Shown piece after piece: positions 43,690-57,444 of a stretch of DNA of 64,000 nt. Both the position numbers and the translations under genes were made by a program. The stretch is from an uncultured Acidobacteriota bacterium. GTDB lineage: Bacteria > Acidobacteriota > UBA6911. Numbering within the stretch: the first letter of the stretch is position 1; each line of letters begins with the position of its first letter. The stretch spans positions 160,001 to 224,000 of the forward strand of contig CAWJKZ010000024.1 in NCBI GenBank assembly GCA_963843575.1, in the 5' to 3' direction. The notes below the pieces were generated by a model that searched no databases, was not told the origin of the DNA, and was given only the letters and a program-made list of their open reading frames with translations.

Positions 43690-44553
43690 ATGCACCGGTT
43701 GACGGATCCATTCTGGGCATTCTGGGGCAGGATCCTGCTCAAGCCCGTGGCGTTGGTCGTGCTGAGCGCCTCGATGCTTTTCGAGGGCTATCACCTCCTC
43801 GCCCCGTCCGGGGACAGCCTCGGCGGCATCCGCCGCGATCTCGCCGAACAGGTCTGCGGCAAGGCCGTCGACGAGCTGCCGAAGATGAACGGCGTCCCGT
43901 CCCTCGCGGTTCTCAACCTCGCCGGCGACGACCAGGGGCTCGTCACCGAAATCCTGCGCGCGCGGCTCGAAGCTTCCGGCGAGTTCCGCCTGATGGAGCC
44001 CGGCTTTTTCAGGAAGCTCCTGCGCGAATTCGGCAAGGAGGAAGCGCCCGTCTCGCGTCTCGCCGACGCGGTCGACATGGCCCGCAAGCTCGGGGTCGAC
44101 CTGGTCCTCTTCGGCGAACTCCCGGAATTCAAGGCCTCGGCCGACCGTGCCGCGATCCGGCTCGAGCTGCGGATGGCCGAGCGCGCGACAGGCCAGGCTT
44201 TGTTCGCGCGCAGCTACTCGGAGAGCGTGGGCAGCGGCCCGGGTCGTTTCAGCTGGCGCGCGCGCATGGCGGGGAGCGCCAAGGGGCGCAGGATATTCAT
44301 CTGGGTCGCGTTCACCCTGCTGCTCCCACTCCTGACCGTCCCCTTGATCCGCCGCATCATCTCGGTCGAATCGAATCTCGTCAACCTCGTCCTGCTCGTG
44401 GCCTACACGGCCGTCGACCTGGCGCTCGCGTTCTTCCTGACGGGCTTCTGGATTCCCGGGATCTGGACCGCGGTCGTGCTGCTGCTCGCGCTCGCGGCGA
44501 GCGCTCTCTACAACTACGTGATTGCTTCGTTTATCGAAGAGATGAGTCACTGA
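43690..44553 (+). CDS. Membrane protein with CsgG/FlgO-like alpha/beta domain and C-terminal TM bundle
   Basis: N-terminal TM; LAVLNL...ARKLGVDLVLFGEL...LRMAERATGQ; three to four C-terminal TM helices. Confidence 0.65.
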   Translation: MHRLTDPFWAFWGRILLKPVALVVLSASMLFEGYHLLAPSGDSLGGIRRDLAEQVCGKAVDELPKMNGVPSLAVLNLAGDDQGLVTEILRARLEASGEFRLMEPGFFRKLLREFGKEEAPVSRLADAVDMARKLGVDLVLFGELPEFKASADRAAIRLELRMAERATGQALFARSYSESVGSGPGRFSWRARMAGSAKGRRIFIWVAFTLLLPLLTVPLIRRIISVESNLVNLVLLVAYTAVDLALAFFLTGFWIPGIWTAVVLLLALAASALYNYVIASFIEEMSH

Positions 44554-44563
44554 GGTAACCGAT

Positions 44564-45160
44564 ATGGCTCTGTTCAAATCCAAAGAAGAGCGGCGCATCG
44601 AAAGGAACATCCAGATCCGCAAGGCCGTGACCCAGATCCGCCGCCAGATCGCCTCCAACGGCAAACACGAGAGCGATTACATCGCCAAGGCGAAGAGAGC
44701 CCGGAAAATGGGCTGGGACAACCAGTACGAGTTCCTCAAGAAGGCGATCAAGAAGACCGCCACGATCAAGGTCCGGCTCGAGCGGCAGCTGCTGGCGCTG
44801 GAATCCGCCGTGCAGATCAAGGAGCAGGCCGAAGGGCACCACGAGTTCGCGAGCGCGATGAACGCGCTGTCGAAGTCGATCGCCGAGGTGTTCGGCGCCA
44901 CCGACATGGCCAAGACCCAGGTCAATTTCGAGAAGGCGATGTCGCAGGCCGAGAGCCTGGAAGAGCGGATGGACACGTTCCTCGAGATGACGTCCGAGTC
45001 GATGTTCGACTACGAGGGGAGTTCCGAGCGCGAGCTCGTCAGCGACGGCGACATCGACAAGATGCTCGAGGAGGAAGTGCAGCACGAGGAACGCGAAGGG
45101 ATAGACGAAGAAATCGACAAGGACATTTCGGCCATCCAGAAGGAAATCGAGAAAAAATAA
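44564..45160 (+). CDS. ESCRT-III (Snf7/Vps2/CdvB)-like protein 1
   Basis: 198 aa, MALF N-terminus, basic helical hairpin (KAKRARKMG...RLERQLLALE), acidic C-terminal half. Confidence 0.75.
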   Translation: MALFKSKEERRIERNIQIRKAVTQIRRQIASNGKHESDYIAKAKRARKMGWDNQYEFLKKAIKKTATIKVRLERQLLALESAVQIKEQAEGHHEFASAMNALSKSIAEVFGATDMAKTQVNFEKAMSQAESLEERMDTFLEMTSESMFDYEGSSERELVSDGDIDKMLEEEVQHEEREGIDEEIDKDISAIQKEIEKK

Positions 45161-45162
45161 TG

Positions 45163-45199
45163 TGGAGTGCGCGCCTCGGCGCCTCGACGCCGCACTCCA
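45163..45199. repeat. Short family A palindrome between ESCRT-III gene 1 and ATPase 1
   Basis: TGGAGTGC...GCACTCCA inverted ends. Confidence 0.7.
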
Positions 45200-45203
45200 G
45201 AAG

Positions 45204-46310
45204 ATGAATACGATGCAGTTCTTCCTTGATCAGTACGAGAAGAACAAGGACCAGGGGCTCGACTATCTCAAGGTCGGGGACTACGAGCAGGCAGGTTACC
45301 ACCTGCTCCTCGCGGCGAAGTACCTGCTGACCGCGGCGCAGCGGTCGGAGCCGGGGCTCAAGAAAGTGAGACACGCGAAGGCGTTGAAGCTGCGCGAGCT
45401 CGCGCTCTCGGCGAAGGGTCGGACTCCCCCCAGGAAGGCTGCGGGGGCCAGGGACCAGGACGGCGATCTGACGCCCGAGAGCAAGTGGATTGTCTCCGAG
45501 AAGCCGAACGTCCGGTTCGACCAGGTCGCCGGCCTCGCGGACGTCAAGGAAGCGATCAACCTGCGCGTCATCCTGCCGTTTCGCAATCCCGACGCCGCGA
45601 AGCGCTTCAGGAAGAAGGCGGGGGGCGGCATCCTCCTGTACGGACCGCCGGGCACCGGCAAGACGATGATCGGCAAAGCGGTCGCGACCGAGCTCGACGC
45701 GCAGTTCCTCAACGTCAAGAGCTCGAACATCATGTCGCCGTGGGTCGGGGTGGCCGAGCAGAACCTCGCGCGGCTGTTCGAGGTGGCGCGCCGGTATCCC
45801 ATCTCGGTGATTTTCCTGGATGAGACCGAGGCCCTGGTCGGGAAGCGCGGCAGCCAGTCGACCGTGATGAACCGCGTAGTCCCGGAGTTCCTCTCGCAGG
45901 TCGACGGACTCGACCCGAAGGTGAACTGCATCCTGCTGATGGGGGCCACGAACCGGCCGTGGGACATGGACGAGGCGGCCCTGCGCACCGGGCGCTTCGG
46001 CGAGATGATCTACGTGGGTCTCCCCGATGCCGCGGCCCGCGAACAGATACTCCATTTCCACCTGGACGGCATCCCGATGGCGTCCGACATCGACCTCCCT
46101 GCCCTGGCGGCGAGGCTGGACGGCTTCAGCGGAGCGGACATCGCGGGTGTCTGCATCAAAGCGACCGATTTCCCCTTTCAGCGGCAGATCCGCTCGGGGG
46201 CCGACACGATTCTGACCAAGGAGGACCTGGACCGGGCCGCTGCGGAAGTCGTCCCGTCGGTGACCCAGGCCATGCTGGAGCGCTATCGCAAGTTCGCGGA
46301 GGCGAGGTAA
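45204..46310 (+). CDS. Vps4/CdvC-like AAA+ ATPase 1 with MIT-like N-terminus
   Basis: Three-helix N-terminus; SEKPNVRFDQVAGL, GPPGTGKT, SPWVG pore loop, FLDE, ATNRPW; single AAA module. Confidence 0.85.
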   Translation: MNTMQFFLDQYEKNKDQGLDYLKVGDYEQAGYHLLLAAKYLLTAAQRSEPGLKKVRHAKALKLRELALSAKGRTPPRKAAGARDQDGDLTPESKWIVSEKPNVRFDQVAGLADVKEAINLRVILPFRNPDAAKRFRKKAGGGILLYGPPGTGKTMIGKAVATELDAQFLNVKSSNIMSPWVGVAEQNLARLFEVARRYPISVIFLDETEALVGKRGSQSTVMNRVVPEFLSQVDGLDPKVNCILLMGATNRPWDMDEAALRTGRFGEMIYVGLPDAAAREQILHFHLDGIPMASDIDLPALAARLDGFSGADIAGVCIKATDFPFQRQIRSGADTILTKEDLDRAAAEVVPSVTQAMLERYRKFAEAR

Positions 46311-46334
46311 CGCCGCCCGCTTTGGAGTCGACCG

Positions 46335-47030
46335 ATGAGTGACCCCGTAAGCCACAGCCTCCCTGCCGCGCCGCGCTGGGGCGAACTCTTCCTCGAGCGG
46401 TTCGACCTGAACGTGCGCGCCTGCGGCGCCGTCGTGCACCCGGCCGACGGGACCGTGCTCAAGGTCAATCCGAAGATGCTGGGGCAAACTTTCCGCCGGG
46501 ACTTCGGCGAAGTGGTGCTCTTCTCGCTCTCCGCCGGCCTCATCGCCAGATCCCGCCTGCACCTGGCCGCCATCCGGCTGAACGACGGCGTCCCCGAGCC
46601 GGAACTCCTGCGCCGCGTGGGCGGTCCCGACGGACTCGATTTCGTGGGCGATCATTTTTACTCCGTCGGGTTGTTCGCGCCCGGCGGCTGGCCCGAAGAG
46701 TGGAAGGCACAGGCGGCGCTGCGCGGCAACGCGCTGTTCTACCTGGTCGAGAAGGGGGACGGAACCGGCTGGGGCGTGTTCGGCCCGGAAAACCCTCTCC
46801 TGCGGCTGTTCGACCCCGAGACGACCATCGAGAAGGCGGCCCGGGCGGCGCAGGCCCTCGCGGGGCACCCACGGCTCGTGATGCCGGGGGACCAGGTCGA
46901 AGCCGGCGCGTTCGCCGCGGAACTGCGCCTGGACGCGGAGGCCCTGGAGAAAGCGCTGGCAGCTTCGCAGGGGCGCTTCCACAAGATGGAGTACAAGGGC
47001 AAGACCTACATACAGCGGTCAATCCGGTAG
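46335..47030 (+). CDS. Hypothetical protein with possible C-terminal winged-helix-like domain
   Basis: Intact 231-aa ORF; tail AFAAELRLDAEALEKALAASQGRFHKMEYKGKTYI (helices then beta hairpin). Confidence 0.55.
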   Translation: MSDPVSHSLPAAPRWGELFLERFDLNVRACGAVVHPADGTVLKVNPKMLGQTFRRDFGEVVLFSLSAGLIARSRLHLAAIRLNDGVPEPELLRRVGGPDGLDFVGDHFYSVGLFAPGGWPEEWKAQAALRGNALFYLVEKGDGTGWGVFGPENPLLRLFDPETTIEKAARAAQALAGHPRLVMPGDQVEAGAFAAELRLDAEALEKALAASQGRFHKMEYKGKTYIQRSIR

Positions 47031-47038
47031 GAGGAATC

Positions 47039-47650
47039 ATGTCCGTGATGGAGAAACTCAGAGCGCTGTTCCAGAGCGAGAGTCTGCCGGACGAGACGCG
47101 CCAGCTTTACAGCAGGGCGTCCACGCCGCACGAACTCATCAAGGAGCTGGAGGGGTTGCGGGGCCGCAACGAGGTCGACCTGCGCGAGAACGAGCAGGAG
47201 CTGATCGGGCTCGAGAAGGCGGTCCTGCTGGAGGAGGACGCCGTGCGCCGGGGAGGGATGACCCCGACCGAAGAGACGATCGTGCTGCGCCGGATCGAAC
47301 GGCTGCAAAAGCAGCGGGAGAACCTCGACCGGCAGGTCTCGATCTACAACGAAAACGTCAACCTGCACCTCAACCTCATCGCCAGAATCCAGGAGATGGA
47401 GGCGATGCGCTCCCGCGGGGTCGCCGAGGACCAGATCGACCGGCTCGTCGAGGATGTCGAGGGGCACGTCGAAGAGTACAAACGGGTGAGCATTGCGGCC
47501 GAAGGGGGCTCGACCATGGGTTCGGCCATCGACCACTCGGCCGAGCGCCGCCGCCTGGACGAGATCAAGAACCGCATCCTGGCCAGGGACAGGGAACGTC
47601 CACGCGCCGCGGACGAGGAACCCGTCGAACCCCCCAAAGACCTGGAGTGA
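47039..47650 (+). CDS. ESCRT-III/PspA-superfamily-like protein 2
   Basis: 203 aa after AGGAGG; MEKLRALF amphipathic start, long coiled-coil hairpin, terminal helix RRRLDEIKNRIL. Confidence 0.6.
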   Translation: MSVMEKLRALFQSESLPDETRQLYSRASTPHELIKELEGLRGRNEVDLRENEQELIGLEKAVLLEEDAVRRGGMTPTEETIVLRRIERLQKQRENLDRQVSIYNENVNLHLNLIARIQEMEAMRSRGVAEDQIDRLVEDVEGHVEEYKRVSIAAEGGSTMGSAIDHSAERRRLDEIKNRILARDRERPRAADEEPVEPPKDLE

Positions 47651-47686
47651 TCCCAGCTATCACGATTCATCAAAGGAGATCGAATC

Positions 47687-48307
47687 ATGAACCTGATCGA
47701 AAAGCTGTTCAGCAAATCGCCCACCGCGGCGGACCTCCGGGTCCAGCTCAAGGAGATCGAAAGGGACCAGAAGAAGAAGCGGCGCGACCTCGACATCGTC
47801 GAGCGCAACAAGCAGCAGAAGGTCAAGGAAGCCGTCGCCGCAAAGAAGAATGGCAAACAGGAGGTGCTCCGGGACATCTTCCGGGAGATGCGGCAGATGG
47901 AGATCGAGAACGGCTATGCAAACGCCGACCTGCGCCGCCTGTCGCTGGCCAAGACCGCGCTGACGTCCTTCCTGCGCAAGATGGAGATGCTCGAGCGGAA
48001 GAAGGACCGGAAGAGCCTGCAGAACCTGATCGTGCGGTTCAAAGACAGCTCGATCCAGAAGGCGATCGACACGGCGGAAGTCGACGACGACACCTTCAAC
48101 GACATGCTGGAAGAGATCCTCGGCGAAGAGGAGTTGTCGGTCACGCAGGGGAGGGTGAAAGAAGATACCGGGTTTGCCGACTTCGACCGGGCGATCGGCG
48201 AGATGGCGAAGGCCGAGGAGGCCGGTTCGGACGAAGAGGATCTCAACAAGTTCCAGGAAGAGATCGACAAGGCCGTCCGGGCGGAAAAAGTGCGGGACGA
48301 GGCGTAG
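47687..48307 (+). CDS. ESCRT-III (Vps24/Vps2/CdvB)-like protein 3
   Basis: 206 aa, MNLIEKLFSK start, basic hairpin with AKKNGKQEV turn, acidic C-terminal half. Confidence 0.75.
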   Translation: MNLIEKLFSKSPTAADLRVQLKEIERDQKKKRRDLDIVERNKQQKVKEAVAAKKNGKQEVLRDIFREMRQMEIENGYANADLRRLSLAKTALTSFLRKMEMLERKKDRKSLQNLIVRFKDSSIQKAIDTAEVDDDTFNDMLEEILGEEELSVTQGRVKEDTGFADFDRAIGEMAKAEEAGSDEEDLNKFQEEIDKAVRAEKVRDEA

Positions 48308-48331: not shown

Positions 48332-49552
48332 ATGGACGTCGACCTGAGCGGGCCGCTGAAAGTGTCGCTGGACAAGACACTGGCCGAGGCGCGGGAGCTC
48401 GAAGGGCAGAACAAGGGCCAGGAGGCGGCCGTCGCCTACCTGAAGGCGTCGAAGCTGATGAAGAGCTACGCCGACTACGCGCTCACCCGCGACGACCAGG
48501 TGCGGAGGCGCCAGAAGGCGCGGCAGTACCTGGAGTGGGCCGAGGCGCTCAAGGCCGGCAAGCGGCGGGTGGCCGCAGCCGCCGCGCCCGTGCGGGCTGC
48601 ACCGGTTGCCGGCGGCGTCAAGGAGGCCGCCGCCGGGGACGAGGAACAGTACTCGCGCGACATCGCGTCGCTGATCCACCGCAGCAAGGTGACGTGGGAC
48701 AAGATCGGCGGGCTCGAGGAGACCAAGCGTGAGATCAAGTTCACGTACGGGCTCGCGCTGGCCCGGAAACCGGAAGGGATGAAGCTCGCGGGGTGGCGCC
48801 GCATGCTCTTCTACGGGCCGCCCGGGACCGGCAAGACGTTGCTGGCGGCGGCTACCAGCAACGGGCTGGGCGCGACCTTCTTCAACGTCAAGGCGAGCAA
48901 CCTCCTGTCGAAGTACTTCGGCGAGTCCTCGAAGCTGATCACGGAGCTGTTCGACGCCGCCCGGAGCGAGGCCGACGAAGGCTTCGCCGTCATTTTCATC
49001 GACGAGGTCGAGTCGCTCTGCCTGCCGCGCGGCGACGGCTCGGAGAGCGGCGCCGAGAGGCGCGTCCTGTCGACGATCCTGTCGGAGCTCGACGGGCTGG
49101 CGGACAAGGGTGAGGACCGGTTCGTCCTGACCATCGCGGCGACCAACGCGCCGTGGGACCTCGACGACGCGGTGCTCAGCCGCTTTCAGAAGAGAATTTA
49201 CATCCCGCTGCCCGACGCCGAAGCGCGCAAGTCGATACTCGAGATCCTGCTGCTCAAGGCGGGCCACACGCTGGACTACCCGCTCGGGGAGGTCATCGAG
49301 CACTCGGAGTGGTTCAGCGGGCGCGACCTGGAACGGCTGGCGAACCAGGCGGTCAACGTCATGGTCGAGGAACTCAACAGCCAGATTCCGCGCTGCGTCG
49401 ACGCCGGGCGGGAGTCGATCGAGGGCTACCAGCTCAAGGTGCGCCCGCTCGGCAAGAGCGATTTCGACGAGGCGTTCCGGCGCATACGGGTGGACGTGGA
49501 CCGGCTGAAAAAGCTGGAGACGCGCTTTCGCGAGTTCGCAGAGAGCAATTGA
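48332..49552 (+). CDS. Vps4/CdvC-like AAA+ ATPase 2 with MIT-like N-terminus
   Basis: Three-helix N-terminus; VTWDKIGGL, GPPGTGKT, SKYFGES, FIDE, ATNAPWDLD..LSRFQKRIYIPLPD. Confidence 0.88.
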   Translation: MDVDLSGPLKVSLDKTLAEARELEGQNKGQEAAVAYLKASKLMKSYADYALTRDDQVRRRQKARQYLEWAEALKAGKRRVAAAAAPVRAAPVAGGVKEAAAGDEEQYSRDIASLIHRSKVTWDKIGGLEETKREIKFTYGLALARKPEGMKLAGWRRMLFYGPPGTGKTLLAAATSNGLGATFFNVKASNLLSKYFGESSKLITELFDAARSEADEGFAVIFIDEVESLCLPRGDGSESGAERRVLSTILSELDGLADKGEDRFVLTIAATNAPWDLDDAVLSRFQKRIYIPLPDAEARKSILEILLLKAGHTLDYPLGEVIEHSEWFSGRDLERLANQAVNVMVEELNSQIPRCVDAGRESIEGYQLKVRPLGKSDFDEAFRRIRVDVDRLKKLETRFREFAESN

Positions 49553-49570: not shown

Positions 49571-50542
49571 ATGGCGGTTTGCGGTCAGTGTAAACAGGAC
49601 GGCGGGGAAAAGAAGTTCTGCACCAACTGCGGCGCGCCCATGGTTGAGCCGGCCGCGCCCGCTCAGAAAGCGCAGGCGTCCGGGGTGCGGCTTGGGGACA
49701 TCGGGTTCGTGAAGGGGAACATCACCGACTCGAGCACGGTCACGACGACCACCACCAACGTCGGGCAGATCAACATCGGGATGCCTGCCGGCACGTCCCC
49801 CGCGGCCCCGTGTTGCCCCATCTGCGGCGAGTACCCGGAGCTGCGCGAGAGCTTCCGCTGCATGGCGTGCGGGCGCGACTACATCTGCAAGAGGCACCGC
49901 CACCCCGAGCAAAGGATCTGCACCGCGTGCGTCCGCCGGCGCGAGATGGTGTGGGTGCCGCCGGGCGGATCGTTCGACGGGTTCTGGATGGACCGTGCGA
50001 AGGTGACCTGCGAGGCCTACCGGCGATTCCTGGTGGCCAATCCCGGCTGGCAGAAAGGGAGCGTCGATGGGAAGCGCCACGACGGCTACTATCTCAGGGA
50101 TTGGAACGGGAACGACTACCCGGCCGGGAAGGGCGGCCAGCCGGTGGTCTACGTCAGCTGGTACGCGGCCCGCGCCTGCGCGGAGTGGTCCGGGAAGCGG
50201 CTCCCGACCGAGGCCGAGTGGGAGTACGGCTGCCGCGCGGGAACGAACACGGCCTACTGGTGGGGGGACGAGTTCGCCCTGGGGCGGGCCGCCGAAGCCA
50301 ACCCTTGGGGACTGCGCGGCATGTCGGGGTGCCTGTGGGAGTGGACGTCATCGCCCTTCAGCGACGACCCCGCGGATGCGGGGCCGCGCAGCTGCCGCGG
50401 CGGCTCGAAATGGGGGGATGCGGCCGAAGCCCGCTCCTCCGCGCGCAGCGGCCGCGCCCCGAGAGGCTGCAGCGTGATGGTCGGTTTCCGGTGCGTCGAG
50501 AGCGGAGACTGTCCAACGACGAAGCCACTCGACCAGATGTGA
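49571..50542 (+). CDS. Zinc-ribbon + FGE-sulfatase (C-type-lectin fold) protein
   Basis: Multiple CxxC pairs; PVVYVSW, RLPTEAEWEY, NPWGL..MSG.LWEW, RGGS, GFRC; no signal peptide. Confidence 0.85.
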   Translation: MAVCGQCKQDGGEKKFCTNCGAPMVEPAAPAQKAQASGVRLGDIGFVKGNITDSSTVTTTTTNVGQINIGMPAGTSPAAPCCPICGEYPELRESFRCMACGRDYICKRHRHPEQRICTACVRRREMVWVPPGGSFDGFWMDRAKVTCEAYRRFLVANPGWQKGSVDGKRHDGYYLRDWNGNDYPAGKGGQPVVYVSWYAARACAEWSGKRLPTEAEWEYGCRAGTNTAYWWGDEFALGRAAEANPWGLRGMSGCLWEWTSSPFSDDPADAGPRSCRGGSKWGDAAEARSSARSGRAPRGCSVMVGFRCVESGDCPTTKPLDQM

Positions 50543-50543: not shown

Positions 50544-50640
50544 TCAAGTGGGTCTGGGCTTCAGCCCGGACGTCTTTTGATCTGAGCTATACAGCTAAGC
50601 ATGCGCTGTATAGCGACCGACGAACCAGCGTCCCACTTGA
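50544..50640. repeat. Family B element with internal deletion
   Basis: TCAAGTGGG...CCCACTTGA inverted ends; body aligns to reverse complement of 8321-8429. Confidence 0.7.
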
Positions 50641-50672: not shown

Positions 50673-52181
50673 ATGATGATGGATGCCGCGGACCAATTGA
50701 AGGAGCTGCTTCTCAAACTCAAGCAGAACCTCCCGCTCACGATCGCGACCACGATCGTAATGAGCATCCTCGTCATATCATGGAAAAAACTCCTTCATTT
50801 TGCGAAACGCAGACTCGGTTTCGAAGAGCCTCCCAAGGAAGTCCTGAAACCCTCGCTCCCTGAAGGCGATTTTGCCCGTCTGTCGACGCTCGACAAGTTC
50901 CGTTCCGGCTTCTCGGTGCCCTTCGGCTGGCGCGGCGCCGTCGTCGACGCCGGCGTGGTTCAGCGTGAGCTCGGCCCCGGCCGCTACCGCCGGCGCGCCG
51001 TCGCGAAGATAATCGCCTCCCTGCGGCTCGGCGAAAACGCGCACGTCGTCTTCTGGCGGGACCAGGAGTTCCCCGTAGTGCTCTATCTCCGTGATCTCTT
51101 CGCCTCCGACCACCAGCCCATGCAGCTCGAGATCCGGAGCACGGCCCGGGTGCGGCCCGATCGTCTGACGCACTCCTCCCCGGAGGAGATCAACCGCGAC
51201 CCGGCCTGCTGGGCGGAGGATCTCTCGGCCGGCATCGCGGTTGCCGCCCGCCAGTGGGTGGCCGGTATGGCGGCAGAGGCGCCGTATCACAACGCGGCCA
51301 AGCTCTCCGAGTGGTGCGACGTGGCTGCCGGCTGGATCCGGTCCGCCCTCGAGCGCTCGACTTTCGAACTGGTGCGAGTTACCGGGTTCCGGTTGTTCAG
51401 CCCGGTGCTCGACAAGGTCTTCGCCGAATACGGCGAGGCGGCGCTGGAGCACGAGGCCGCGCGCCGCGAGGTGGAGCGCAACAAGGTGCGCGGGGCGCTG
51501 CGCCAGGCCGTGCTCGCCGGCCAACTGGAGGAGGTCCGGGACCAGAGCGAGCACGAACAGGCGGTGCGCGCCATCGAGCAGGAAAAAGAGCTCCGCGAGA
51601 AAGCCCTGCGGCAGGAACTGGCGCAGGCCGAACTCACGGAACTGGAAGACAAACTGAGACTCTGGAAGAAGAAGCAGGACCTGTTGCTCCAGACGCTCGA
51701 CCTGTCGGGGCAGGACTCCGCCCGGCAGTTTGATGCCCCCGACTCGCCGTTCTCCGCCCACGAGCGCGAACAGATCCGGGCAGTGCTGCAGAGTCAAAGG
51801 GCGATGTCGACGCAACCCGAGGAAGTGCTCCCGCTGCTCGCCCGCAGCACAGAGATCCAGTGGGCCGCGTTCGACCCGCTTGCCCGGATCCGCGGCCCGC
51901 ACACGCTGCGCGTCGGCGAGGGGTGGCGGTTCTTCGACGGGGTGAGCCTGTGGAGAATCGTGCTGACCCGCATCGACACGCGTCGTAACGGGTTCTTGTG
52001 GCAGCGGGAGACGCCGTCGCGCGCGTATTTCGAAGTGCGCGGCACGCCCGACGGCCGGCGCTACGAGCAGGTTGTCGAACTGAACAAACACTTCCGGCTG
52101 AGCGCCGGCCCCCACGAGATGAGTGTCGACTTCATCGGCGGCAGCGCGAGCCGGATTTCACTCCAGGTAGGCCAGGCCTGA
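50673..52181 (+). CDS. Membrane-anchored SPFH-like coiled-coil protein
   Basis: N-terminal TM; VPFGWRGAVV..G...LGPGRY SPFH-type start; E/A/R-rich coiled coil; beta-rich tail. Confidence 0.55.
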   Translation: MMMDAADQLKELLLKLKQNLPLTIATTIVMSILVISWKKLLHFAKRRLGFEEPPKEVLKPSLPEGDFARLSTLDKFRSGFSVPFGWRGAVVDAGVVQRELGPGRYRRRAVAKIIASLRLGENAHVVFWRDQEFPVVLYLRDLFASDHQPMQLEIRSTARVRPDRLTHSSPEEINRDPACWAEDLSAGIAVAARQWVAGMAAEAPYHNAAKLSEWCDVAAGWIRSALERSTFELVRVTGFRLFSPVLDKVFAEYGEAALEHEAARREVERNKVRGALRQAVLAGQLEEVRDQSEHEQAVRAIEQEKELREKALRQELAQAELTELEDKLRLWKKKQDLLLQTLDLSGQDSARQFDAPDSPFSAHEREQIRAVLQSQRAMSTQPEEVLPLLARSTEIQWAAFDPLARIRGPHTLRVGEGWRFFDGVSLWRIVLTRIDTRRNGFLWQRETPSRAYFEVRGTPDGRRYEQVVELNKHFRLSAGPHEMSVDFIGGSASRISLQVGQA

Positions 52182-52282
52182 CGGATTTTTGAAAATTCGA
52201 GATTCTTCGAGTCTTGGAGCCTTCGAGGTGGGATTGGAATCCCCCTCGACGACCATTTCACCAGACGCATCGGAGGCACGCC

Positions 52283-54343
52283 ATGTTCCAGGTCGAATGC
52301 CCTAAATGTCAGGAGAAAAGCAAGTCCGGTTCGCGTTATTGCGGCAACTGCGGCGAACGCCTGCCGGGGTCGGAGATCAAGTGCGGCAACTGCGGTGCCG
52401 TCGTCGCGGGCGACAGGAAGTTCTGCGGGAACTGCGGCAAGCCCCTGGCCGAGAGCGAATCCCCGCTGCTGACCGGCAACCGCTGGGCGCGGCGCACCGA
52501 CGATTTCGCGACCAAGGTCGAGATCGACGACGTCGAAGGCTTCTTCAAGAAAGGGTTGATCGTCGAGGCGGGCACCAGGGCCATCTTCTTCGTCAACGGC
52601 GCGTACTCCGGCATCCTCGATCCCGGCAAATACGACATGGGCGGACTGCTTCAGCGCATCAAGAACGTCTTCAGCTCGAAGACGACCACCGCGGTCCTCG
52701 TCGATGCGGGAGACGCCGAACTCCAGTTCTCGCTCACCGACCTTCCGACGAAAGATCCTATCCGCCTTGCCGCCGAGTGCAGGATCGTCGTCCAGATGGA
52801 CAACCCCACCCAGTTTTTCGAAAACATGATGAAGGGCCGGCAGAACTATCCGCTCTCGCAGCTGAAGGGCTTCCTCGAGGAGGAACTGCGCAACTGCCTG
52901 CTCGAGTTCGTCGGCGCCAGGTCCGTCCAGGAACTGTCGACCAACCTCGCATTCAAGCAGCAGATGGAGCAGGGGATCGCGCAGCACCTCGCCAGGACGT
53001 TCGACCGGAAGGGGCTGTCGTTCATCCAGGCGCGCGTCTTCAACTTCCGGCACCCGCGCATGAACGCGCTGACCAGCAAGATGGAGGAGTACTGGTTGAA
53101 CGCCGAGGATCTCAAGGCCCGGCTGGCCGGACAGGACTCCACGGTGGGGCTGGAGCGGCGTCTGCTCGACCAGGAGACCGCCAAGGCGATCATGCAGCTC
53201 GAAGTCTACGAAGACCGGGCGCGGGTGCGCGACCGGATGCGCAAGGCGGTCGCGAGCGATCAGATGAACGAGATCACCAGCGCGGCCGAGATGGAGAAAT
53301 TCCTCCAGGGGATGGACAAGGAAAAGCTCCTGCGCGCCGACGAGATGCGTGACCTCGCCCAGACCTTCGCCGAGAAGGGCGAAGATCACGACGTCGCCCG
53401 CCGTCACGTGATCCAACGGCTGAGGGTCGAGCAGGAGATGGACCTCGCCCGGGCGGCGCTCGTGGGCAAGATCGGACTGCAGCGCACGGCCACCGATTCC
53501 ATCAGGGCCGAGGAGATGGCCCAGCTCGAGCACGAGCTCGTGGCGCAGCGCAAGGAAGTCGAACAGCGGCAGGCGCAGGAATGGGCGCTCGTCAAACAGC
53601 AGGTGGAGGCGCGGCGCCTGCAGACCGAGATGGACCTCGACCTGGACAGGCAGAGGAAGCTCTCCGATATCGAACTCGAGGAGAAAGGGGACCAGGCGGA
53701 CGTGCGCAGCGCCCTGGATGCCTTGAGAATCGTCAAAGAGCAGAAGGCCATGCGGAAGGAAGAAGCCGACGCCGACCTGGAGCGCCGGTTGAAAGAGGAG
53801 GCGGTGCGGCACCAGCAGGAGCTCGAGAGGGTCGACAAGCTCTCGACGCTTTCCACCGAGGCGCTGATCGCGCTCGGGCCCGCGGACCGGGCGCCTATTC
53901 TCGCAGAACTGCAGCGGTCGGAAAAGCTGAAGGGTTATTCGGCGGACCAGATCCTGGCGATGGCGGCCGAGAAAAACCCGGAGGTGGCGAAGGCATTCCA
54001 GGAGAAGTACCGGAACGCTTCGGCCGCAGACGTCGAGAAGGCCTACGAGCGGATGCTGGGGATGAAGGAGAGGAGCGAAACCGACTTCCACGCGTTCGCG
54101 GACAAGGCCATGCAGAGGATGCAGGAGATGTACAACCGCGGCATGGACACGCAGCGCGACACGAGCATGGCGGCGGCCCGGTCGGGCCAGCCCGAGACGA
54201 CCGTGATCACGCCCGGCTCCGGAGTCCTCCAGAGCAGCGGCGGGCAGCCCGTCCGCGAGGTGCGGGTGATGGTCTGCCCCGAGTGTCACCAGAAGGTCGC
54301 CGAAGGGAACAAGTTCTGCGACAACTGCGGTCACAAGTTCTGA
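52283..54343 (+). CDS. Double-zinc-ribbon SPFH (YdjI/band-7-like) protein with long coiled coil
   Basis: Four N-terminal CxxC, LIVEAGTRAIFFVNG...LDPGKY, long coiled coil, C-terminal CPEC...FCDNCG; ATG 52283 after GGAGG. Confidence 0.8.
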   Translation: MFQVECPKCQEKSKSGSRYCGNCGERLPGSEIKCGNCGAVVAGDRKFCGNCGKPLAESESPLLTGNRWARRTDDFATKVEIDDVEGFFKKGLIVEAGTRAIFFVNGAYSGILDPGKYDMGGLLQRIKNVFSSKTTTAVLVDAGDAELQFSLTDLPTKDPIRLAAECRIVVQMDNPTQFFENMMKGRQNYPLSQLKGFLEEELRNCLLEFVGARSVQELSTNLAFKQQMEQGIAQHLARTFDRKGLSFIQARVFNFRHPRMNALTSKMEEYWLNAEDLKARLAGQDSTVGLERRLLDQETAKAIMQLEVYEDRARVRDRMRKAVASDQMNEITSAAEMEKFLQGMDKEKLLRADEMRDLAQTFAEKGEDHDVARRHVIQRLRVEQEMDLARAALVGKIGLQRTATDSIRAEEMAQLEHELVAQRKEVEQRQAQEWALVKQQVEARRLQTEMDLDLDRQRKLSDIELEEKGDQADVRSALDALRIVKEQKAMRKEEADADLERRLKEEAVRHQQELERVDKLSTLSTEALIALGPADRAPILAELQRSEKLKGYSADQILAMAAEKNPEVAKAFQEKYRNASAADVEKAYERMLGMKERSETDFHAFADKAMQRMQEMYNRGMDTQRDTSMAAARSGQPETTVITPGSGVLQSSGGQPVREVRVMVCPECHQKVAEGNKFCDNCGHKF

Positions 54344-54386
54344 GCGGAAAGCGGCGCCGAGGCGCCGCACTCCATAGGGGGCAGCC

Positions 54387-55751
54387 ATGGCTAGTTGGGT
54401 GTGTGGGAAGTGCAATACCGAGAATCGGGCCGAGGGGAACTTCTGCACGTCGTGCGGCGCGTCGCGTCGCGCTCAGGCGCCCCCCGCCCCGGCCGGCGCA
54501 GCGGACCAGGCGTCGAGCATCCTGGACAAGATCCGCGAGTCGCGGGCAAGCTCGTTCAAACACAGCCGGGCCTCGCTCGACCGTTTCTCGTCGGAGGTGG
54601 GGAAGCTCCCGGAGCTGGAGCTGGGGTTGCCCGACATCGGGCAGCTGCTCAAAACCGGGACGCCCGGCGCGGCGGGTGCTTCGGCAGGTGCGTCGCGCGC
54701 TCCTGCGATCGCCCGGGTCACGACCCGCGACCTGCAGGTGAAACACAATGCCCACCCGCGCCTGAACTACGCGATGGCGCACTGCGGGCTGCCGCTGATC
54801 CCGACGCTGGAGATCCGCAACAACGCGCGCGAGCCGGCGCAGGACGTATTGGTCAAGGCGTGGGTCGCGACCGACTACGGCGAACCGTGGCAGAAGACCA
54901 TCCCATCGATTGCGCCTGGGGAGGCGTACGTCGAGAAGGACATCTTCGTGCCGCTGCAGAAATCCCGGCTGCAGCAGGTCCGGGAGGCGGAACGGGCCAA
55001 CCTCAGGATCGACGTTTTCACCGAGGGCGAGGTGCAGGTGTCGGAGACCTTCCCGCTCGATGTGCTCGCGTACAACGAGTGGTACTACAGCGCGTACTTC
55101 CCTCAGACGGTCGCGAGCTTCATTCAGCCCAATTCGCCGGCCATCGAAAGGATCGTCTCGCTGGTGCGCGACCGCCTGAAGCGCGAGTACCGCGACACCG
55201 CGCTGGACGGCTATCAGTCCGACGACCCGAAAAAGATCCTGGAACGCCTCGAGGCGTTCTTCCTCGTCCTGCAGAAGGACCTGCAGATCACCTACATCAA
55301 CCCGCCGCCCAGCTTCGAAGGGGCCGAAACCCTCCCCGACGGCACCATGACGGTGTCGCAGAAGGTTTTTTTCCCCGAGCAGATCCTGGAGCACCGCCGC
55401 GGCACGTGCCTCGACCTGGCCCTCATGTGCGCCGCGTGCGTCGAACGTATGGGGCTGCACCCATTGTGGTTCATGATCCGCGGGCACGCGTTCTTCGGGA
55501 CGTGGCTGTACCAGAAGGCGCTCAAAGAGCCGGTCGTCACCGAACACGCGTTCGTGCAGAAACTGCTGACCGAGGGACTGTGGCTGCCGCTGAACTCGAC
55601 GACCTTCGCGCTCTCCCGCCCGATGCAATTCACGGACTGCGTCGCGGAGGCAACTTACTGTCTCAAGGATCCGGCACCGTTCATCTGCGCCGTCGACGTG
55701 CAGTCGGCACGGATGGGCGGCATCAAACCTATCCCCCCGGTGGTGGGATAG
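54387..55751 (+). CDS. RanBP2/NZF-type zinc finger + transglutaminase/papain-like Cys-His domain
   Basis: WxCx2Cx3Nx6Cx2C at N-terminus; YINPPPSFE...QKV...GTCLDLAL...GHAFFGTWL. Confidence 0.7.
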   Translation: MASWVCGKCNTENRAEGNFCTSCGASRRAQAPPAPAGAADQASSILDKIRESRASSFKHSRASLDRFSSEVGKLPELELGLPDIGQLLKTGTPGAAGASAGASRAPAIARVTTRDLQVKHNAHPRLNYAMAHCGLPLIPTLEIRNNAREPAQDVLVKAWVATDYGEPWQKTIPSIAPGEAYVEKDIFVPLQKSRLQQVREAERANLRIDVFTEGEVQVSETFPLDVLAYNEWYYSAYFPQTVASFIQPNSPAIERIVSLVRDRLKREYRDTALDGYQSDDPKKILERLEAFFLVLQKDLQITYINPPPSFEGAETLPDGTMTVSQKVFFPEQILEHRRGTCLDLALMCAACVERMGLHPLWFMIRGHAFFGTWLYQKALKEPVVTEHAFVQKLLTEGLWLPLNSTTFALSRPMQFTDCVAEATYCLKDPAPFICAVDVQSARMGGIKPIPPVVG

Positions 55752-55788
55752 GCAAGTACCGCAGGCTTTTCGATTGAGGTGAGCTGTC

Positions 55789-57444
55789 ATGACCGAGACG
55801 ACTCGCTATTGCCCGAATTGCGGAGAACCGTGCGGCTCCGAAGACCGCTTCTGCATGACCTGCAGGACAGAGTTGCGCGCCACAACAAATCCCCGTCCGG
55901 TGACCGTTTCCGGCACCGGGACTCCCTCCGGCACGGGCCATGCGGCCCGGTCGCCGATGGCCGACCCGCTCGGCGCGGCCCAGACCGAACTGGGGCTGCC
56001 GCTGAACACGGTCCTGCTCAACCGTTACCGCATCTCCAAGATGCTGGGCGCCGGCGGCATGGGTTGCGTCTACATGGCCGAGGATGAAAAACTCGGGATC
56101 CCCGTCGCCATCAAGGTTCTGCGCGACGTGCTCAGGCAGGATCCCGGGTCGGTGAGGCGACTGATCACCGAGGCGAAGGCCTCCATCCTGCTGTCGCACC
56201 CGAACATCGTCCGGCTGCACAATTTCGAGGACGCCGAGACGACGAAGTTCCTCGTCATGGAATTCGTCCAGGGCGAGACGCTGGCCGACAAGATCGCCCG
56301 GGAGGGAAAACTCGCGGAGGACGTCGTCAGGCGCATCGCCGTCGAGGTCTGCAAAGGGCTGGAGCACGCTCATTCCAAGAGGGTGATTCACCGCGACATG
56401 AAACCCGGGAACATCCTCCTCGGCAAGGACGGCTCGGTGAAGGTCGCAGATTTCGGCATTGCGCGGCTGTGCCGCGACTCGGTGTCGCGCCTGACGTCGC
56501 AGCACGACTCGGGGACGCTGATCTACATGTCCCCGGAGCAGCTCGACGGCGACAGCGGGGAATCGACCGACCTGTACTCGCTCGGGGCGGTGCTCTACGA
56601 GATGTTGTCCGGGGACCCGCCATTCGTTACGGGGGAAATCACGGCCCAGATCCGTCACAAGGTGCCGAAGGAGATACCCGGGGTCTCGGCGGAGATGAAT
56701 CGGATCGTCCTGAAGTGCCTGGAGAAGAAGCCGGAGAACCGGTTCGCCGGGTTGGCCCGGTTGCGCGAGACGTTGGAGGGCAAGGCCACGCAGACCGTCG
56801 GGACGCAGCCGGTCGGGCCGCCACCAGCGCAGCCGCCGGTCACGCCAACGGTGCGGCCCACCGAGCCGGTGGTTGCCCCACCTCCTCCGCCGCAACCACA
56901 GCTACCCCGGCCGAAGAAGTCGCGGTTGACGTTGTCCGTGGTATTGGGGGGCGCCGCGCTCCTCCTGGCCCTGATGGTGTACCTGTCGATCTTCGGAGCG
57001 TATCACGGCTCGGAAATCGGCGGAGGGGGAGGAGGAGGGAGCGGCGACGACGGCGGCTCCGTGCCACCCCCGCCCCGCATCGACATCTCGGGAGACTGGG
57101 GTTACACGGTCACGTCACCCGACGGCAGGTCTGTCCGCGGCCAGCTGCAGATCGCCGACAAGGGAGGCGAGGTGCGGCTCTATGCCGAGGCCGCGTACTC
57201 GATGATGTGGACCGACGGGCGCTTCCACCAGTTCATCGAGCGCAGCAACTGGGCCGGCCAGCTTGTCGACCGCAACCTGCAGGCGCAGACCGTTCAGGGG
57301 ACCGTGCTGATGGACGGGGTGCCGGTCCCCCCGATCGGGTTGCCCTGGAGTTTGAACCTCTCGGTCTCCCCCGGCGAACGCTACATGCAGGGGACCGTAG
57401 GGAACGCGATCGGCGGGGTCGCCAGCCTGTCCGCGCAGCGGTGA
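55789..57444 (+). CDS. Hanks-type Ser/Thr kinase with N-terminal zinc ribbon, TM and external domain
   Basis: CPNC...CMTC; LGAGGMG, VAIK, HRDMKPGN, DFG, YMSPE; Pro-rich linker; one TM. Confidence 0.95.
   Translation: MTETTRYCPNCGEPCGSEDRFCMTCRTELRATTNPRPVTVSGTGTPSGTGHAARSPMADPLGAAQTELGLPLNTVLLNRYRISKMLGAGGMGCVYMAEDEKLGIPVAIKVLRDVLRQDPGSVRRLITEAKASILLSHPNIVRLHNFEDAETTKFLVMEFVQGETLADKIAREGKLAEDVVRRIAVEVCKGLEHAHSKRVIHRDMKPGNILLGKDGSVKVADFGIARLCRDSVSRLTSQHDSGTLIYMSPEQLDGDSGESTDLYSLGAVLYEMLSGDPPFVTGEITAQIRHKVPKEIPGVSAEMNRIVLKCLEKKPENRFAGLARLRETLEGKATQTVGTQPVGPPPAQPPVTPTVRPTEPVVAPPPPPQPQLPRPKKSRLTLSVVLGGAALLLALMVYLSIFGAYHGSEIGGGGGGGSGDDGGSVPPPPRIDISGDWGYTVTSPDGRSVRGQLQIADKGGEVRLYAEAAYSMMWTDGRFHQFIERSNWAGQLVDRNLQAQTVQGTVLMDGVPVPPIGLPWSLNLSVSPGERYMQGTVGNAIGGVASLSAQR

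Follow-up and report, generated by a model that had tools for sequence, protein, structure and literature searches.

A 12-gene locus from a soil-type Acidobacteriota bacterium probably encodes a bacterial counterpart of the membrane-cutting ESCRT-III/Vps4 machine of archaea. Recent reviews restrict the ESCRT-III/Vps4 pairing to archaea and eukaryotes (the available text of a 2025 review states that a Vps4-like ATPase "appears absent in bacteria"; PMC7619361), whereas here it is found in a conserved operon in a bacterium. The locus occupies positions 43690-57444 of the window, i.e. the whole 64,000-nucleotide stretch of DNA analyzed, and holds twelve ORFs, all on the + strand, as listed in a preliminary description of this DNA. 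That description read them as a multi-subunit bacterial ESCRT system, a reading that our analysis supports and that no result overturned outright. The genes are as follows.

g1, 43690-44553, + strand: membrane protein of 287 aa, as judged by hydropathy
g2, 44564-45160, + strand: Snf7-family ESCRT-III protein of 198 aa
g3, 45213-46310, + strand: single-module classical AAA ATPase of 365 aa, with a helical N-domain of ~75 aa
g4, 46335-47030, + strand: 231-aa domain that forms the C terminus of a subtilase-bearing protein in most relatives
g5, 47048-47650, + strand: helical protein of 200 aa that may be a divergent ESCRT-III-like subunit
g6, 47687-48307, + strand: 206-aa helical protein with an ESCRT-III-like predicted topology, immediately 5' of g7
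g7, 48332-49552, + strand: MIT-AAA ATPase of 406 aa, counterpart of archaeal Vps4
g8, 49571-50542, + strand: weak zinc ribbon and FGE-sulfatase-type domain (Pfam 4.9e-31)
g9, 50673-52181, + strand: protein of 502 aa with a membrane span near its N terminus at 19-38 (hydropathy)
g10, 52214-54343, + strand: double zinc ribbon, SPFH/Band 7 domain, long coiled coil and C-terminal zinc ribbon
g11, 54387-55751, + strand: weak zinc ribbon and a domain shared with the N terminus of the Prometheus defence protein ProA
g12, 55789-57444, + strand: weak zinc ribbon, Ser/Thr kinase, one membrane span and a C-terminal outer domain of ~145 aa

Successive genes from g1 to g12 are separated by 10, 52, 24, 17, 36, 24, 18, 130, 32, 43, and 37 nt. 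Because third-position GC is 0.84-0.93 throughout, all twelve are genuine genes from a GC-rich genome. The longest ORF for g3 starts at GTG 45162, and the Met at 45213 is the start in relatives. No significant promoter or terminator signal was found at the operon borders, which counts against our reading, and a Pfam scan of the seven upstream candidate ORFs returned no match.

The protein encoded by g2 has a net charge of +11 in its N-terminal half and −18 in its C-terminal half. PF03357 (Snf7) is matched by 18 of 24 members of its family (best 1.8e-8), and a PDB profile search with g2 returns SNF7 (E 9e-4), CHMP3, and CHMP2A as leading matches, not PspA or Vipp1. As an example of the euryarchaeal "Main"-clade ESCRT system (Makarova et al. 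2024, mBio, PMC10936438), we compared the plasmid locus of Thermococcus peptonophilus OG-1 (NZ_CP014751.1), in which WP_062390961 is catalogued as ESCRT-III/Snf7 arCOG07402 (supplementary file 8 of that paper). The g2 family profile aligns with this protein at an hhalign probability of 99.0% (E 4.8e-18, 149 columns), and BLASTP gives 38.5% identity across 156 aa. At the sequence level, these comparisons show g2 to be a homologue of catalogued archaeal ESCRT-III and a true Snf7-family protein. As a control for Pfam, the catalogued archaeal proteins themselves scored equally weakly against Snf7 (20.5 bits, under the cut-off, 10.1 bits, and no match), with no MIT among the 25 of 27 families listed, and Snf7 scored above its cut-off in none of 14 control genomes, including Sulfolobus.

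The second protein carrying the argument is g7, which has one AAA module (Pfam AAA 8.8e-36). Residues 1-399 align with residues 1-391 of the 393 of Thermococcus WP_062390964, listed as Vps4 arCOG01307 in the same supplementary file, with 38.6% identity (E 3e-84, 252 bits), and g7 scores only 126-143 bits to g3. In AAA trees, which were quick searches including one archaeal Vps4 and leaving aside Cdc48, katanin, and spastin, g7 and WP_062390964 form one clade (SH-aLRT 100). The predicted three-helix N-domain (residues 2-79) matches MIT domains with Z 10.1-11.8, among them those of calpain-7, MITD1, Sulfolobus CdvC (2w2u; Z 11.0, 74/74 residues), and VPS4A (2jq9; Z 10.5), these four giving Z 10.5-11.8 with rmsd 2.1-2.8. 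Similarly, MIT proteins make up 10 of 14 PDB matches of the N-domain profile, in register (best E 0.19). The ATPase core of the model is poor (pLDDT 40-65), so that the Foldseek matches are a mixture of katanin, p97, spastin, and Vps4. Among NCBIfam models, CdvC scores best for g7, although at 179 bits against an equivalog cut-off of 650 bits, and CDC48 outranks CdvC in all nine g7-like relatives, which runs counter to our reading. Nevertheless, g7 is shown to be an end-to-end homologue of catalogued archaeal Vps4, MIT-type N-domain included.

As the preliminary description had it, the locus encodes two single-module AAA ATPases, g3 and g7, each with one AAA module. Pfam identifies AAA (3.2e-34), AAA_lid_3, and Vps4_C (E 0.011) in g3, and NCBIfam scores CDC48 and CdvC almost alike (208 versus 204 bits). 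Vps4_C is found in all 17 g3 relatives scanned (9 above the cut-off), and in 13 of the 17 the alignment with the CdvC model begins no later than position 26. Less favorably to our reading, CDC48 outranks CdvC in 9 of the 17, a PDB search with the g3 N-domain profile gave no match, and the N-domains of g3 and g7 align over the third helix alone (probability 40%). Thus, placement of both ATPases near Vps4/CdvC with an MIT domain, as originally proposed, holds for g7, which has the MIT-type fold and groups with one archaeal Vps4, and for the g3 family as regards Vps4_C. g3 represents an older paralogue, the second ATPase of the locus, and is a single-module AAA protein of the same broad kind as g7. 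Its family is a widespread paralogue positioned after g2.

Three basic-then-acidic proteins of ~200 aa had been announced, a pattern displayed by g2 and g6 (net +8, then −13) but not by g5 (−4 and −8), the latter counting against our reading. The AlphaFold2 model of g6 (pLDDT 72.5) places helices at 3-7, 14-54, 58-104, 108-119, 122-128, and 134-145, followed by a linker and helices at 163-179 and 183-198. A VIA search with this model has CHMP1B (Z 8.6), CHMP3 (Z 8.4), and Ist1 (Z 8.3) in its top 8, and ESCRT-III entries fill 8 of 50 rows, including ranks 3, 5, and 8; these scores (Z 7.4-8.6) lie in the range that VIA also returns for unrelated helical proteins. The best Foldseek row is Vipp1 (E 0.47), and Snf7 is matched by none of 23 g6 members. 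Hence g6 models as a protein with the ESCRT-III helix order, its fold matches rising no higher than helical noise. For g5, which has relatives in 113 representative clusters at E<=1e-3, the Snf7 signals are faint: 4 of 55 aligned members match Snf7 (best 7.4e-5), hhalign with Thermococcus arCOG09749, a "Snf7 family protein," gives a probability of 31% (E 5e-4, 76 columns), and the nearest named clusters among its language-model neighbours are PspA_IM30 and Snf7 (0.83). Profiles of g5 and g6 do not align significantly with g2 or with each other (hhalign probability <1%). An ESCRT-III fold for all the small proteins is therefore borne out for g2 as a Snf7-family member, whereas g6 has the modelled order only and g5 remains faint.

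The partner genes largely agree with what had been described. The multi-TM protein is g1, in which crude hydropathy, also used for g9 and g12, predicts one hydrophobic span at the N terminus and about three in the C-terminal part. It matches no Pfam family (a weak CsgG match has E 0.096), lies immediately 5' of g2 in related loci (49-61% identity), has counterparts in the distant loci L038, L044, L052, and L078, and is a candidate membrane anchor. g4, first labelled unknown, indeed matches no Pfam family, but relatives tie it to subtilase-bearing proteins: it corresponds to the C-terminal ~230 residues of 697-908 aa ORFs in five of six related loci (L009, L010, L012, L013, and L014), and the three long forms scanned (L010, L012, and L013) all contain Peptidase_S8 (1.7e-41 to 1.7e-43). 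Among related loci only the window and L011 have the short form, which is a subtilase remnant. Two SPFH-like proteins were claimed. This is firm for g10 (Band_7 3.2e-14, DZR 9.3e-14, and Zn_Ribbon_1 7.2e-13), which is kept in L011, L012, and L013 (48-66% identity). g9, with no Pfam match, is tentatively a divergent SPFH paralogue (hhalign with g10: probability 53%, E 1.4e-4, 228 columns) and is kept in L008, L011, and L013 (51-57% identity). The three further zinc-finger proteins, including a membrane Ser/Thr kinase, are g8, g11, and g12, although their zinc ribbons are weak. g8 is a variable accessory gene, missing from L011, L013, and L008, and in L010 the FGE-sulfatase domain is fused to the kinase. 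Residues 127-450 of g11 match positions 1-313 of the 1903 in NCBIfam model NF058533 (antiphage_ProA; E 1.1e-74), scoring 251.8 bits where the cut-off is 1500. In g12, the kinase (Pkinase 1.4e-53; 34% identity to the kinase of the Thermococcus ESCRT locus) precedes a hydrophobic span at 378-407. A Pfam scan found no phosphatase in the locus, which does not favor our reading.

The locus genes travel together, as the reading in the preliminary description requires. The same gene order recurs in five more Acidobacteriota assemblies, and metagenomes contain the same parts in a shuffled order (26-55% identity). Among metagenome loci with at least 3 kb downstream of a g2-like gene, 24 of 33 have an AAA gene within 6 kb downstream. 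Three distant loci (L052, L053, and L056) contain g4-, g5-, g6-, g7-, g2-, g3-, and kinase-like genes (24-48% identity), and L052 and L053 additionally have g10- and g1-like genes.

The Thermococcus locus resembles ours further in having three Snf7-family proteins of ~190-200 aa and a membrane-associated Ser/Thr kinase. According to the available text of Makarova et al. (PMC10936438), STK/STP occur in Main-clade loci, and the Meth_adaptin type has an SPFH protein with a coiled coil and a zinc ribbon. Our locus differs from the Main clade in its bacterial host, in a second ATPase family (g3, the commoner one of bacterial loci), in the extra g1, two SPFH-type proteins, ProA-N-like protein, and FGE-type domain (plus the subtilase in its relatives), and in lacking a PP2C phosphatase. 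Against our reading, hhalign detected no arCOG09748 counterpart among g2, g4, g5, and g6. With CdvB/CdvC and eukaryotic ESCRT-III/Vps4 the locus shares a Snf7-family subunit adjoining a MIT-AAA ATPase with a Vps4_C-type C-terminal region. Unlike crenarchaeal and eukaryotic systems, it has no CdvA and no ESCRT-I/II parts, and no MIM was identified in its proteins; a bacterium is unlikely to require such a system for division. PspA, Vipp1, and LiaH are likewise bacterial membrane-associated helical-hairpin polymers that belong to the ESCRT-III superfamily, with PspA having been linked to SPFH proteins (PMC10936438, available text), but g2 relatives match Pfam Snf7, unlike PspA, and PspA systems lack a MIT-AAA partner. 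The available text of Ravi et al. 2024 (mSystems, PMC11237479) reports archaea-to-bacteria transfer of VPS4-like ATPases, with a TPR-6TM protein in place of snf7, as well as some bacterial Snf7-clade proteins adjoining AAA+ ATPases and longer operons with an ABC transporter and OmpA/PBPB parts. By that description, three helical proteins combined with two ATPases, SPFH, kinase, and ProA-N set our locus apart.

In the mechanism we propose, polymers of g2, probably also including g6 and perhaps g5, would assemble via a long helical hairpin on the inner membrane's cytoplasmic side, with the basic N-terminal half towards the lipids and the acidic C-terminal half and terminal helix left free. Hexamers of g7 and g3 would dock onto these free tails via their N-domains and extract subunits by ATP-driven threading, and the resulting turnover would reshape, constrict, or reseal the membrane. 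g1 and the SPFH pair g9/g10 might label the membrane site or serve as its scaffold, the g12 kinase might use its outer domain as an envelope sensor and switch the system by phosphorylation, and the N-terminal zinc ribbons of g8, g10, g11, and g12 could gather partners on one common platform.

Two alternatives question the ESCRT assignment itself. It is improbable that the likeness is partial, with g2 the sole ESCRT-III relative, the ATPases general Cdc48-like unfoldases, g5 and g6 unrelated coiled-coil adaptors or substrates, and proteins rather than membrane shape the target. CDC48 is the best NCBIfam model in 18 of 26 relatives of both ATPases, Cdc48/p97/VAT are the top PDB sequence matches of g3 and g7 (scores inflated because each has two matched stretches), and g5 and g6 fail every significant Snf7 sequence test. 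However, g7 is nearer to catalogued Vps4 than to g3 and has a predicted MIT-type N-domain, Vps4_C occurs in 24 of 26 ATPase relatives, two of the three Snf7-family proteins of the Thermococcus locus also fail Pfam, and the cluster encodes an SPFH protein alongside three membrane proteins. That archaeal DNA was misbinned or misjoined into the assembly is very improbable. The assembly has draft status (completeness 88.3%, contamination 3.3%), and the closest named relatives found for g2 and g7 are archaeal, but at only about 38% identity; GC and third-position GC agree with the remainder of the window, and a gene flanking the locus has a homologue in a same-genus genome. Synteny across independent assemblies, on contigs that include 97 kb and 1.96 Mb, argues against a chimeric join, in line with the original description.

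With the bacterial ESCRT-III/Vps4 machine as the preferred reading, its physiological role is divided. Envelope-damage repair or vesicle formation has a little under an even chance, anti-phage or other conflict is a lesser possibility, and something else is slightly less probable still. A conflict system (anti-phage or abortive-infection) would compete with a housekeeping role and leave the molecular mechanism alone: the kinase or ProA-N-like protein would detect infection, and the polymer, the ATPases, and, in most relatives, the subtilase would act on the membrane or phage/host proteins. This we consider rather unlikely, although the spread is patchy (6 of 61 related genomes, own genome included, not found in an 81% complete same-genus genome, and 3 of 401 genomes in a phylum sample, one marginal). 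It would also fit the ProA match of g11, Prometheus being an experimentally validated single-protein defence (PMC13700489, available text), the g4-subtilase fusions, and the accessory genes varying among loci (g8 and extra kinases). On the other hand, g11 has no helicase and nuclease parts, which define ProA, and PADLOC returns generic AAA (IetA and TRIP13) and kinase matches but no system-specific model. None of 170 candidate viral stretches has a relative, no integrase or other mobile gene was found among the seven upstream and two downstream candidate ORFs scanned, and the gene immediately 3' of the locus matches AcrB-type RND transporters, i.e. an efflux pump. Moreover, the core is highly conserved among Acidobacteriota, with 85-89% identity for g2 and 84-85% for g6.

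The locus lies on contig 24 of the draft genome G000 (completeness 88.3%, contamination 3.3%), in a window with a GC content of 62-69%. ORF calls define it as follows:

43690-57444, + strand: twelve ORFs, g1 to g12

The encoded proteins are a membrane protein (g1), three small helical proteins (g2, g5, and g6), two AAA ATPases (g3 and g7), a 231-aa domain (g4), an FGE-sulfatase-type protein (g8), two SPFH-type proteins (g10 and, tentatively, g9), a ProA-N-like protein (g11), and a kinase (g12). Third-position GC is 0.84-0.93 in all twelve genes, and the intergenic gaps are 10-52 nt, except for the one between g8 and g9 (130 nt). The start of g3 was placed at the Met at 45213, as in relatives, rather than at the GTG at 45162. 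A GC-rich hairpin with a T-run is found in the g8-g9 gap (window 50552-50571) and might mark a division into two transcription units; such sites occur at chance level regionally, and a promoter/terminator scan of the locus likewise gave counts at chance level.

That these genes belong together, as the preliminary description had proposed, agrees with their conservation in relatives, the records of which bear the labels Acidobacteriota or Vicinamibacterales. The block g1-g2-g3/g4-g5-g6-g7/g9-g10-g11-g12 has an identical order in two related loci, L011 (on a 97-kb contig) and L013 (on a 1.96-Mb contig of the relative G025), and the g1-g12 block is partly kept in four more (L008, L009, L010, and L014). 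In L012, a more distant relative, the order is rearranged. Identities among relatives are highest for g2 (85-89%), g6 (76-85%), g7 (78-85%), and g3 (74-80%), and lower (47-59%) for g1, g4, g9, and g11. The ESCRT-like system is rare among relatives. The g2 gene is present in 6 of 61, with G000 counted, it was not found in the same-genus genome G001 (81% complete), and a sample of the phylum yielded it in 3 of 401, one of which is marginal at E 7e-6.

The preliminary description had viewed the small helical proteins as ESCRT-III of the Snf7 type, and g2 is indeed a predicted ESCRT-III protein. Alone, g2 of the window has no Pfam Snf7 match above noise (E 0.71), and PDB searches with the single sequences of g2, g5, or g6 gave nothing useful. 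Snf7 (PF03357) is matched by 18 of 24 aligned g2 relatives, with a best E-value of 1.8e-8, and the top matches of the g2 family profile in the PDB are SNF7 (E 9e-4), CHMP3, and CHMP2A. None of the 8 PDB profile matches is a PspA or Vipp1 chain, and PspA_IM30 is not among the best 25 of the 34 Pfam families matched by g2 relatives. A tblastn search of plasmids returned one record, a Thermococcus peptonophilus plasmid (NZ_CP014751.1, strain OG-1), whose locus carries, besides genes for three proteins of ∼190-200 aa, those for an ATPase, a Ser/Thr kinase, a PP2C phosphatase, and a protein of 597 aa. The arCOGs listed for this locus by Makarova et al. 2024 (PMC10936438, supplementary file 8) are arCOG07402 ("ESCRT-III/Snf7 family"), arCOG09747 and arCOG09749 (each a "Snf7 family protein"), arCOG01307 (Vps4), and arCOG09748. 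The arCOG07402 protein (WP_062390961) and g2 share 38.5% identity over 156 residues (E 6.6e-23), and hhalign aligned the g2 profile with it over 149 columns with a probability of 99.0% (E 4.8e-18).

The same plasmid provides the closest comparison for g7, which is the predicted Vps4 counterpart, with an MIT-type three-helix N-domain in its model. Residues 1-399 of g7 align with residues 1-391 of the 393 residues of Thermococcus Vps4 (WP_062390964) at 38.6% identity (E 3e-84), and g7 is nearer to this protein (252 bits) than to g3 (126-143 bits). In a quick tree made up of 18 g7-like proteins, 10 g3-like proteins, and this one catalogued archaeal Vps4, Thermococcus Vps4 joins the g7-like proteins (SH-aLRT 100) as their sister (93), apart from the g3-like ones. 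Among NCBIfam models, CdvC scores highest on g7 (179 bits), ahead of PAN (155 bits) and CDC48 (154 bits). Among nine g7-like proteins, CDC48 is the top NCBIfam model in all nine, and Vps4_C is matched in seven (above cut-off in two); a Pfam scan of the 12 locus proteins did not list Vps4_C for g7 of the window. JGI names for 29 listed g7 relatives include nine "katanin p60" and one "SpoVK/Ycf46/Vps4 family."

The AlphaFold2 model of g7 has a mean pLDDT of 66.7, with a confident N-domain (80-92), composed of helices 6-25, 29-47, and 53-74, and a poor ATPase core. The poor modelling of the core kept Foldseek from telling katanin, p97, spastin, and Vps4 apart. For residues 2-79, VIA-align matched the MIT domains of calpain-7 (Z 11.8, rmsd 2.1), MITD1 (Z 11.1), Sulfolobus CdvC (Z 11.0, 74 of 74 residues), and VPS4A (Z 10.5); helical bundles may reach such Z scores by chance, and these were weighed jointly with the sequence results. 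Of the 25 VIA rows confined to the N terminus, 10 are MIT-type structures, ranks 1, 3, and 7 among them. The PDB profile search with the N-domain gave 14 weak matches (best E 0.19), 10 of them to MIT proteins and in register, and Pfam MIT gave just 13.1 bits on g7 in a scan of its own genome. The three-helix N terminus that had been attributed to both ATPases thus holds for g7, while the N-domain of g3 in the window has no match in the PDB profile search and aligns with that of g7 over helix 3 only.

By its domain matches, g3 is a second predicted ATPase family, having a single AAA module, as does g7 (Pfam), and Vps4_C in its relatives. Identity between g3 and g7 is ∼30-35%. NCBIfam gives a near tie for g3 (CDC48 at 208 bits versus CdvC at 204 bits), and Vps4_C scores 16.1 bits on it, against a cut-off of 21.3 (18.7 bits in a scan of its own genome); the comparison value for Thermococcus Vps4 is 35.8 bits. 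All 17 distant g3-like proteins match Vps4_C at E ≤ 0.05 (9 above cut-off). Their best NCBIfam model is CdvC in 8 and CDC48 in 9, the CdvC model aligns from position ≤26 in 13 of the 17, and Pfam MIT was found in one (26.9 bits versus a cut-off of 30). In a quick tree of 50 rows, rooted with two FtsH genes of G000, a single clade (100) holds the g7-like proteins and branches by a long stem from within g3-like diversity. This nesting points to g3 as the older bacterial type.

For the other two small proteins, the expectation of a Snf7 relationship fared less well: it has weak backing for g5, in which Snf7 was matched by 4 of 55 family members (best 7.4e-5), and none from Pfam for g6 (0 of 23 members). 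Pfam failure says little here, since archaeal controls miss the family too: for the catalogued Thermococcus Snf7-family proteins, the Pfam Snf7 model gives 20.5 bits, 10.1 bits, and no score, and none of 14 control genomes, Sulfolobus included, has a match above cut-off. The g5 family has 113 representative clusters (67 at E ≤ 1e-10), and its profile found no ESCRT-III chain in the PDB. The nearest named clusters to g5 in a language-model atlas are PspA_IM30 and Snf7 (at 0.83), and hhalign with arCOG09749 gave a probability of 31%, the sole match when the g4, g5, and g6 profiles were compared with the other Thermococcus proteins. Profile comparisons between g2 and g6, g5 and g2, and g5 and g6 all gave probabilities <1%.

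The fold of g6 is likely ESCRT-III-like, a judgment that combines signals each of which is within noise but which are jointly in favor. Its model (pLDDT 72.5) has a short N-terminal helix and long helices at 14-54 and 58-104; three short helices come next, and after an acidic linker, which is disordered, the chain ends in two further helices. This order corresponds to the ESCRT-III layout, in which a long α1-α2/3 hairpin precedes the short helices α4-α5 and a flexible acidic tail. ESCRT-III proteins occupy 8 of 50 VIA-align rows, with CHMP1B at rank 3 (Z 8.6, 127 residues), CHMP3 at rank 5, and Ist1 at rank 8, these three matches (Z 8.3-8.6) lying within the helical background; IST1, CdvB2, Snf7, Shrub, and CHMP4B come lower. 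They also fill 10 of the best 45 Foldseek rows, in which Vipp1 is top (E 0.47, not above the helical background), and 3 of 30 near atlas clusters are among those with 16% Snf7-carrying members. The g6 profile found no ESCRT-III chain in the PDB. Separately, the C-terminal tails of g2 and g6 (window 45100-45160 and 48230-48307) are alike, with 38.9% identity over 36 residues (E 0.18, alone not significant); the likeness centers on an acidic EEIDK-type helix, a candidate common docking motif.

The partner genes are more variable. In five of six related loci, g4 corresponds to the C-terminal ∼230 residues of an ORF of 697-908 aa, and all three long forms scanned contain a subtilase domain (1.7e-41 to 1.7e-43); in the window and in L011, g4 is reduced to the terminal domain. 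The g8 gene is dispensable among relatives and is fused to the kinase in L010. For the proposed SPFH-like pair, g10 is an SPFH protein with zinc ribbons on both sides, and g9 is tentatively assigned as a divergent, membrane-anchored SPFH paralogue. The predicted membrane Ser/Thr kinase was recovered as g12, which combines a kinase, a membrane span, and an outer domain. We considered g11 as a member of Prometheus (ProA) and rejected this: it covers positions 1-313 of the 1903 of the ProA model (E 1.1e-74, 251.8 bits versus a cut-off of 1500), so that one domain is common and the rest of ProA is absent. ProA is described as a protein of ∼1900 aa with four domains, all essential for activity, its parts including an N-terminal DUF4011, a DNA2 nuclease domain with an insertion, and a C-terminal DUF3320 (PMC13700489).

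Co-occurrence of ESCRT-III-like and AAA genes is seen well beyond these relatives. Eighty of the 81 stretches confirmed in a g2-alignment scan of metagenomes were retained, with identities as low as 29%. A same-strand AAA gene of the g3 or g7 type lies no more than 6 kb downstream in 24 of the 33 loci whose downstream flank is 3 kb or longer; the nine without are L059, L060, L063, L064, L065, L080, L082, L089, and L104. Such a gene ends within 1.5 kb upstream in 13 of the 44 loci with at least 1.5 kb on that side, and among the 29 with both flanks, 22 have an AAA gene on at least one side and 10 on both. Frequent orders are g7-g2-g3 and g1-g2-g3. Three distant loci (L052, L053, and L056) have genes that resemble g4, g5, g6, g7, g2, g3, and the kinase, with identities of 24-48%, and g10- and g1-like genes are additionally found in L052 and L053. 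In the 18 loci of at least 14 kb, we counted g3-like genes in 14, kinases in 9, g7-like and g10-like genes in 7 each, g1-like in 4, and g4-, g5-, and g6-like in 3 each. No relative turned up in a scan of viral contigs. Pfam found little on the genes of L034, L052, and L056 (TPR, A2M, Memo, MerR, and an IS200-like transposase). In L056, the g2-like gene is separated from the g3-like gene by this transposase (Y1_Tnp 6.3e-9; L056:9789-10616). In L034, the g7-like gene is preceded by five successive ORFs (201-279 aa; L034:3916-7487) that match no Pfam family and may represent an enlarged group of helical subunits.

How does the locus compare with known systems? The archaeal "Main"-clade system comprises Vps4, ESCRT-III, arCOG09748 (a wH protein), and arCOG08177, often with STK/STP (PMC10936438). 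Predicted counterparts of its Vps4, ESCRT-III, and STK are present in the locus; hhalign of the g2, g4, g5, and g6 profiles found no match to the arCOG09748 member, and whereas the Thermococcus locus has a PP2C phosphatase, a Pfam scan of g1-g12 found none. Criterion ii for Vps4 in Makarova et al. 2024 is to be encoded beside ESCRT-III genes (PMC10936438), and in the window, g3 directly follows g2 and g7 directly follows g6. The same article describes archaeal ESCRT loci with membrane kinases, one type of which has an SPFH protein that bears a coiled coil and a zinc ribbon. With its own partner genes and this archaeal parallel, the locus reads as a putative kinase-controlled, ESCRT-III/Vps4-type polymer-turnover machine at the inner membrane. 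A 2025 review states that a Vps4-like ATPase "appears absent in bacteria" (PMC7619361). In Ravi et al. 2024 (PMC11237479), transfers of VPS4-like ATPases from archaea to bacteria with snf7 replaced are described, as are some Snf7-AAA operons with transporter genes. Literature searches returned no description of the g1-g12 architecture; such loci may appear in the supplementary material or the web app that accompany Ravi et al.

Taken together, we lean slightly toward the view that this is a complete bacterial ESCRT machine that is conserved, widely scattered, and of direct common ancestry with euryarchaeal "Main"-clade ESCRT, and in which a membrane kinase and SPFH scaffolds accompany several ESCRT-III paralogues and a pair of Vps4-type ATPases. 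A role of the cluster in defence is possible but less likely than not: its rarity among relatives, the ProA-like domain in g11, the subtilase in g4 relatives, and the variable accessory genes leave room for it. PADLOC gave generic matches only and no known system. If it serves defence, the immunity would be membrane-based and of a new kind. If the complete-machine view is right, the ESCRT-III/Vps4 partnership is not limited to archaea and eukaryotes and was either transferred between domains as one module or predates the last archaeal ancestor. Bacteria would then possess, beyond PspA, an ATP-driven device for membrane scission or repair. The locus and its many metagenomic relatives blur the clear line of recent work that reserves ESCRT-III/Vps4 for archaea and eukaryotes, and the origin of the partnership would become testable outside archaea. 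Since ESCRT-III-like subunits are here genetically linked to two ATPase paralogues, SPFH scaffolds, and a kinase, this compact system could reveal how such polymers are targeted and switched.

On the flanks, the same-genus genome G001 shares the gene downstream of the locus (69% DNA identity). The 3.6 kb upstream of the locus gave nothing in G001, and the 20 kb upstream of the G001 copy of the downstream gene encode no flanking or locus proteins; no insertion site was definable. Just past the g12 stop, there is a GC-rich element of ∼40 bp (window ∼57528-57571) with 26 listed places in G001 at 86-93% identity and 2 more at <86% (lowest 77%), one copy adjoining the G001 counterpart of the downstream gene. 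It looks like a REP-like intergenic repeat. The downstream ORF (window 57673-60984, − strand) matches AcrB/ACR_tran (9.6e-74) in two stretches, and a frame other than the AcrB ORF (58176-59954, − strand) has a higher third-position GC (0.92), a conflict that could reflect a frameshift or a mis-chosen ORF.

Two other sites in the source genome deserve mention. On contig C14, a PspA_IM30-like stretch (G000:C14:575336-575647, − strand; 31.5 bits) with one internal TGA is separated by ∼1.2 kb from an AAA gene (G000:C14:576804-577184, − strand) that belongs to an open frame of 588 aa, a pair that recalls the PspA-AAA pairs reported in Ravi et al. 2024 (PMC11237479). On contig C13, a 269-aa frame (G000:C13:249987-250304, + strand) has the best Pfam Snf7 match of the genome, a weak one (19.8 bits, E 0.0019), and may thus represent, outside the window, an additional gene of ESCRT-III type.
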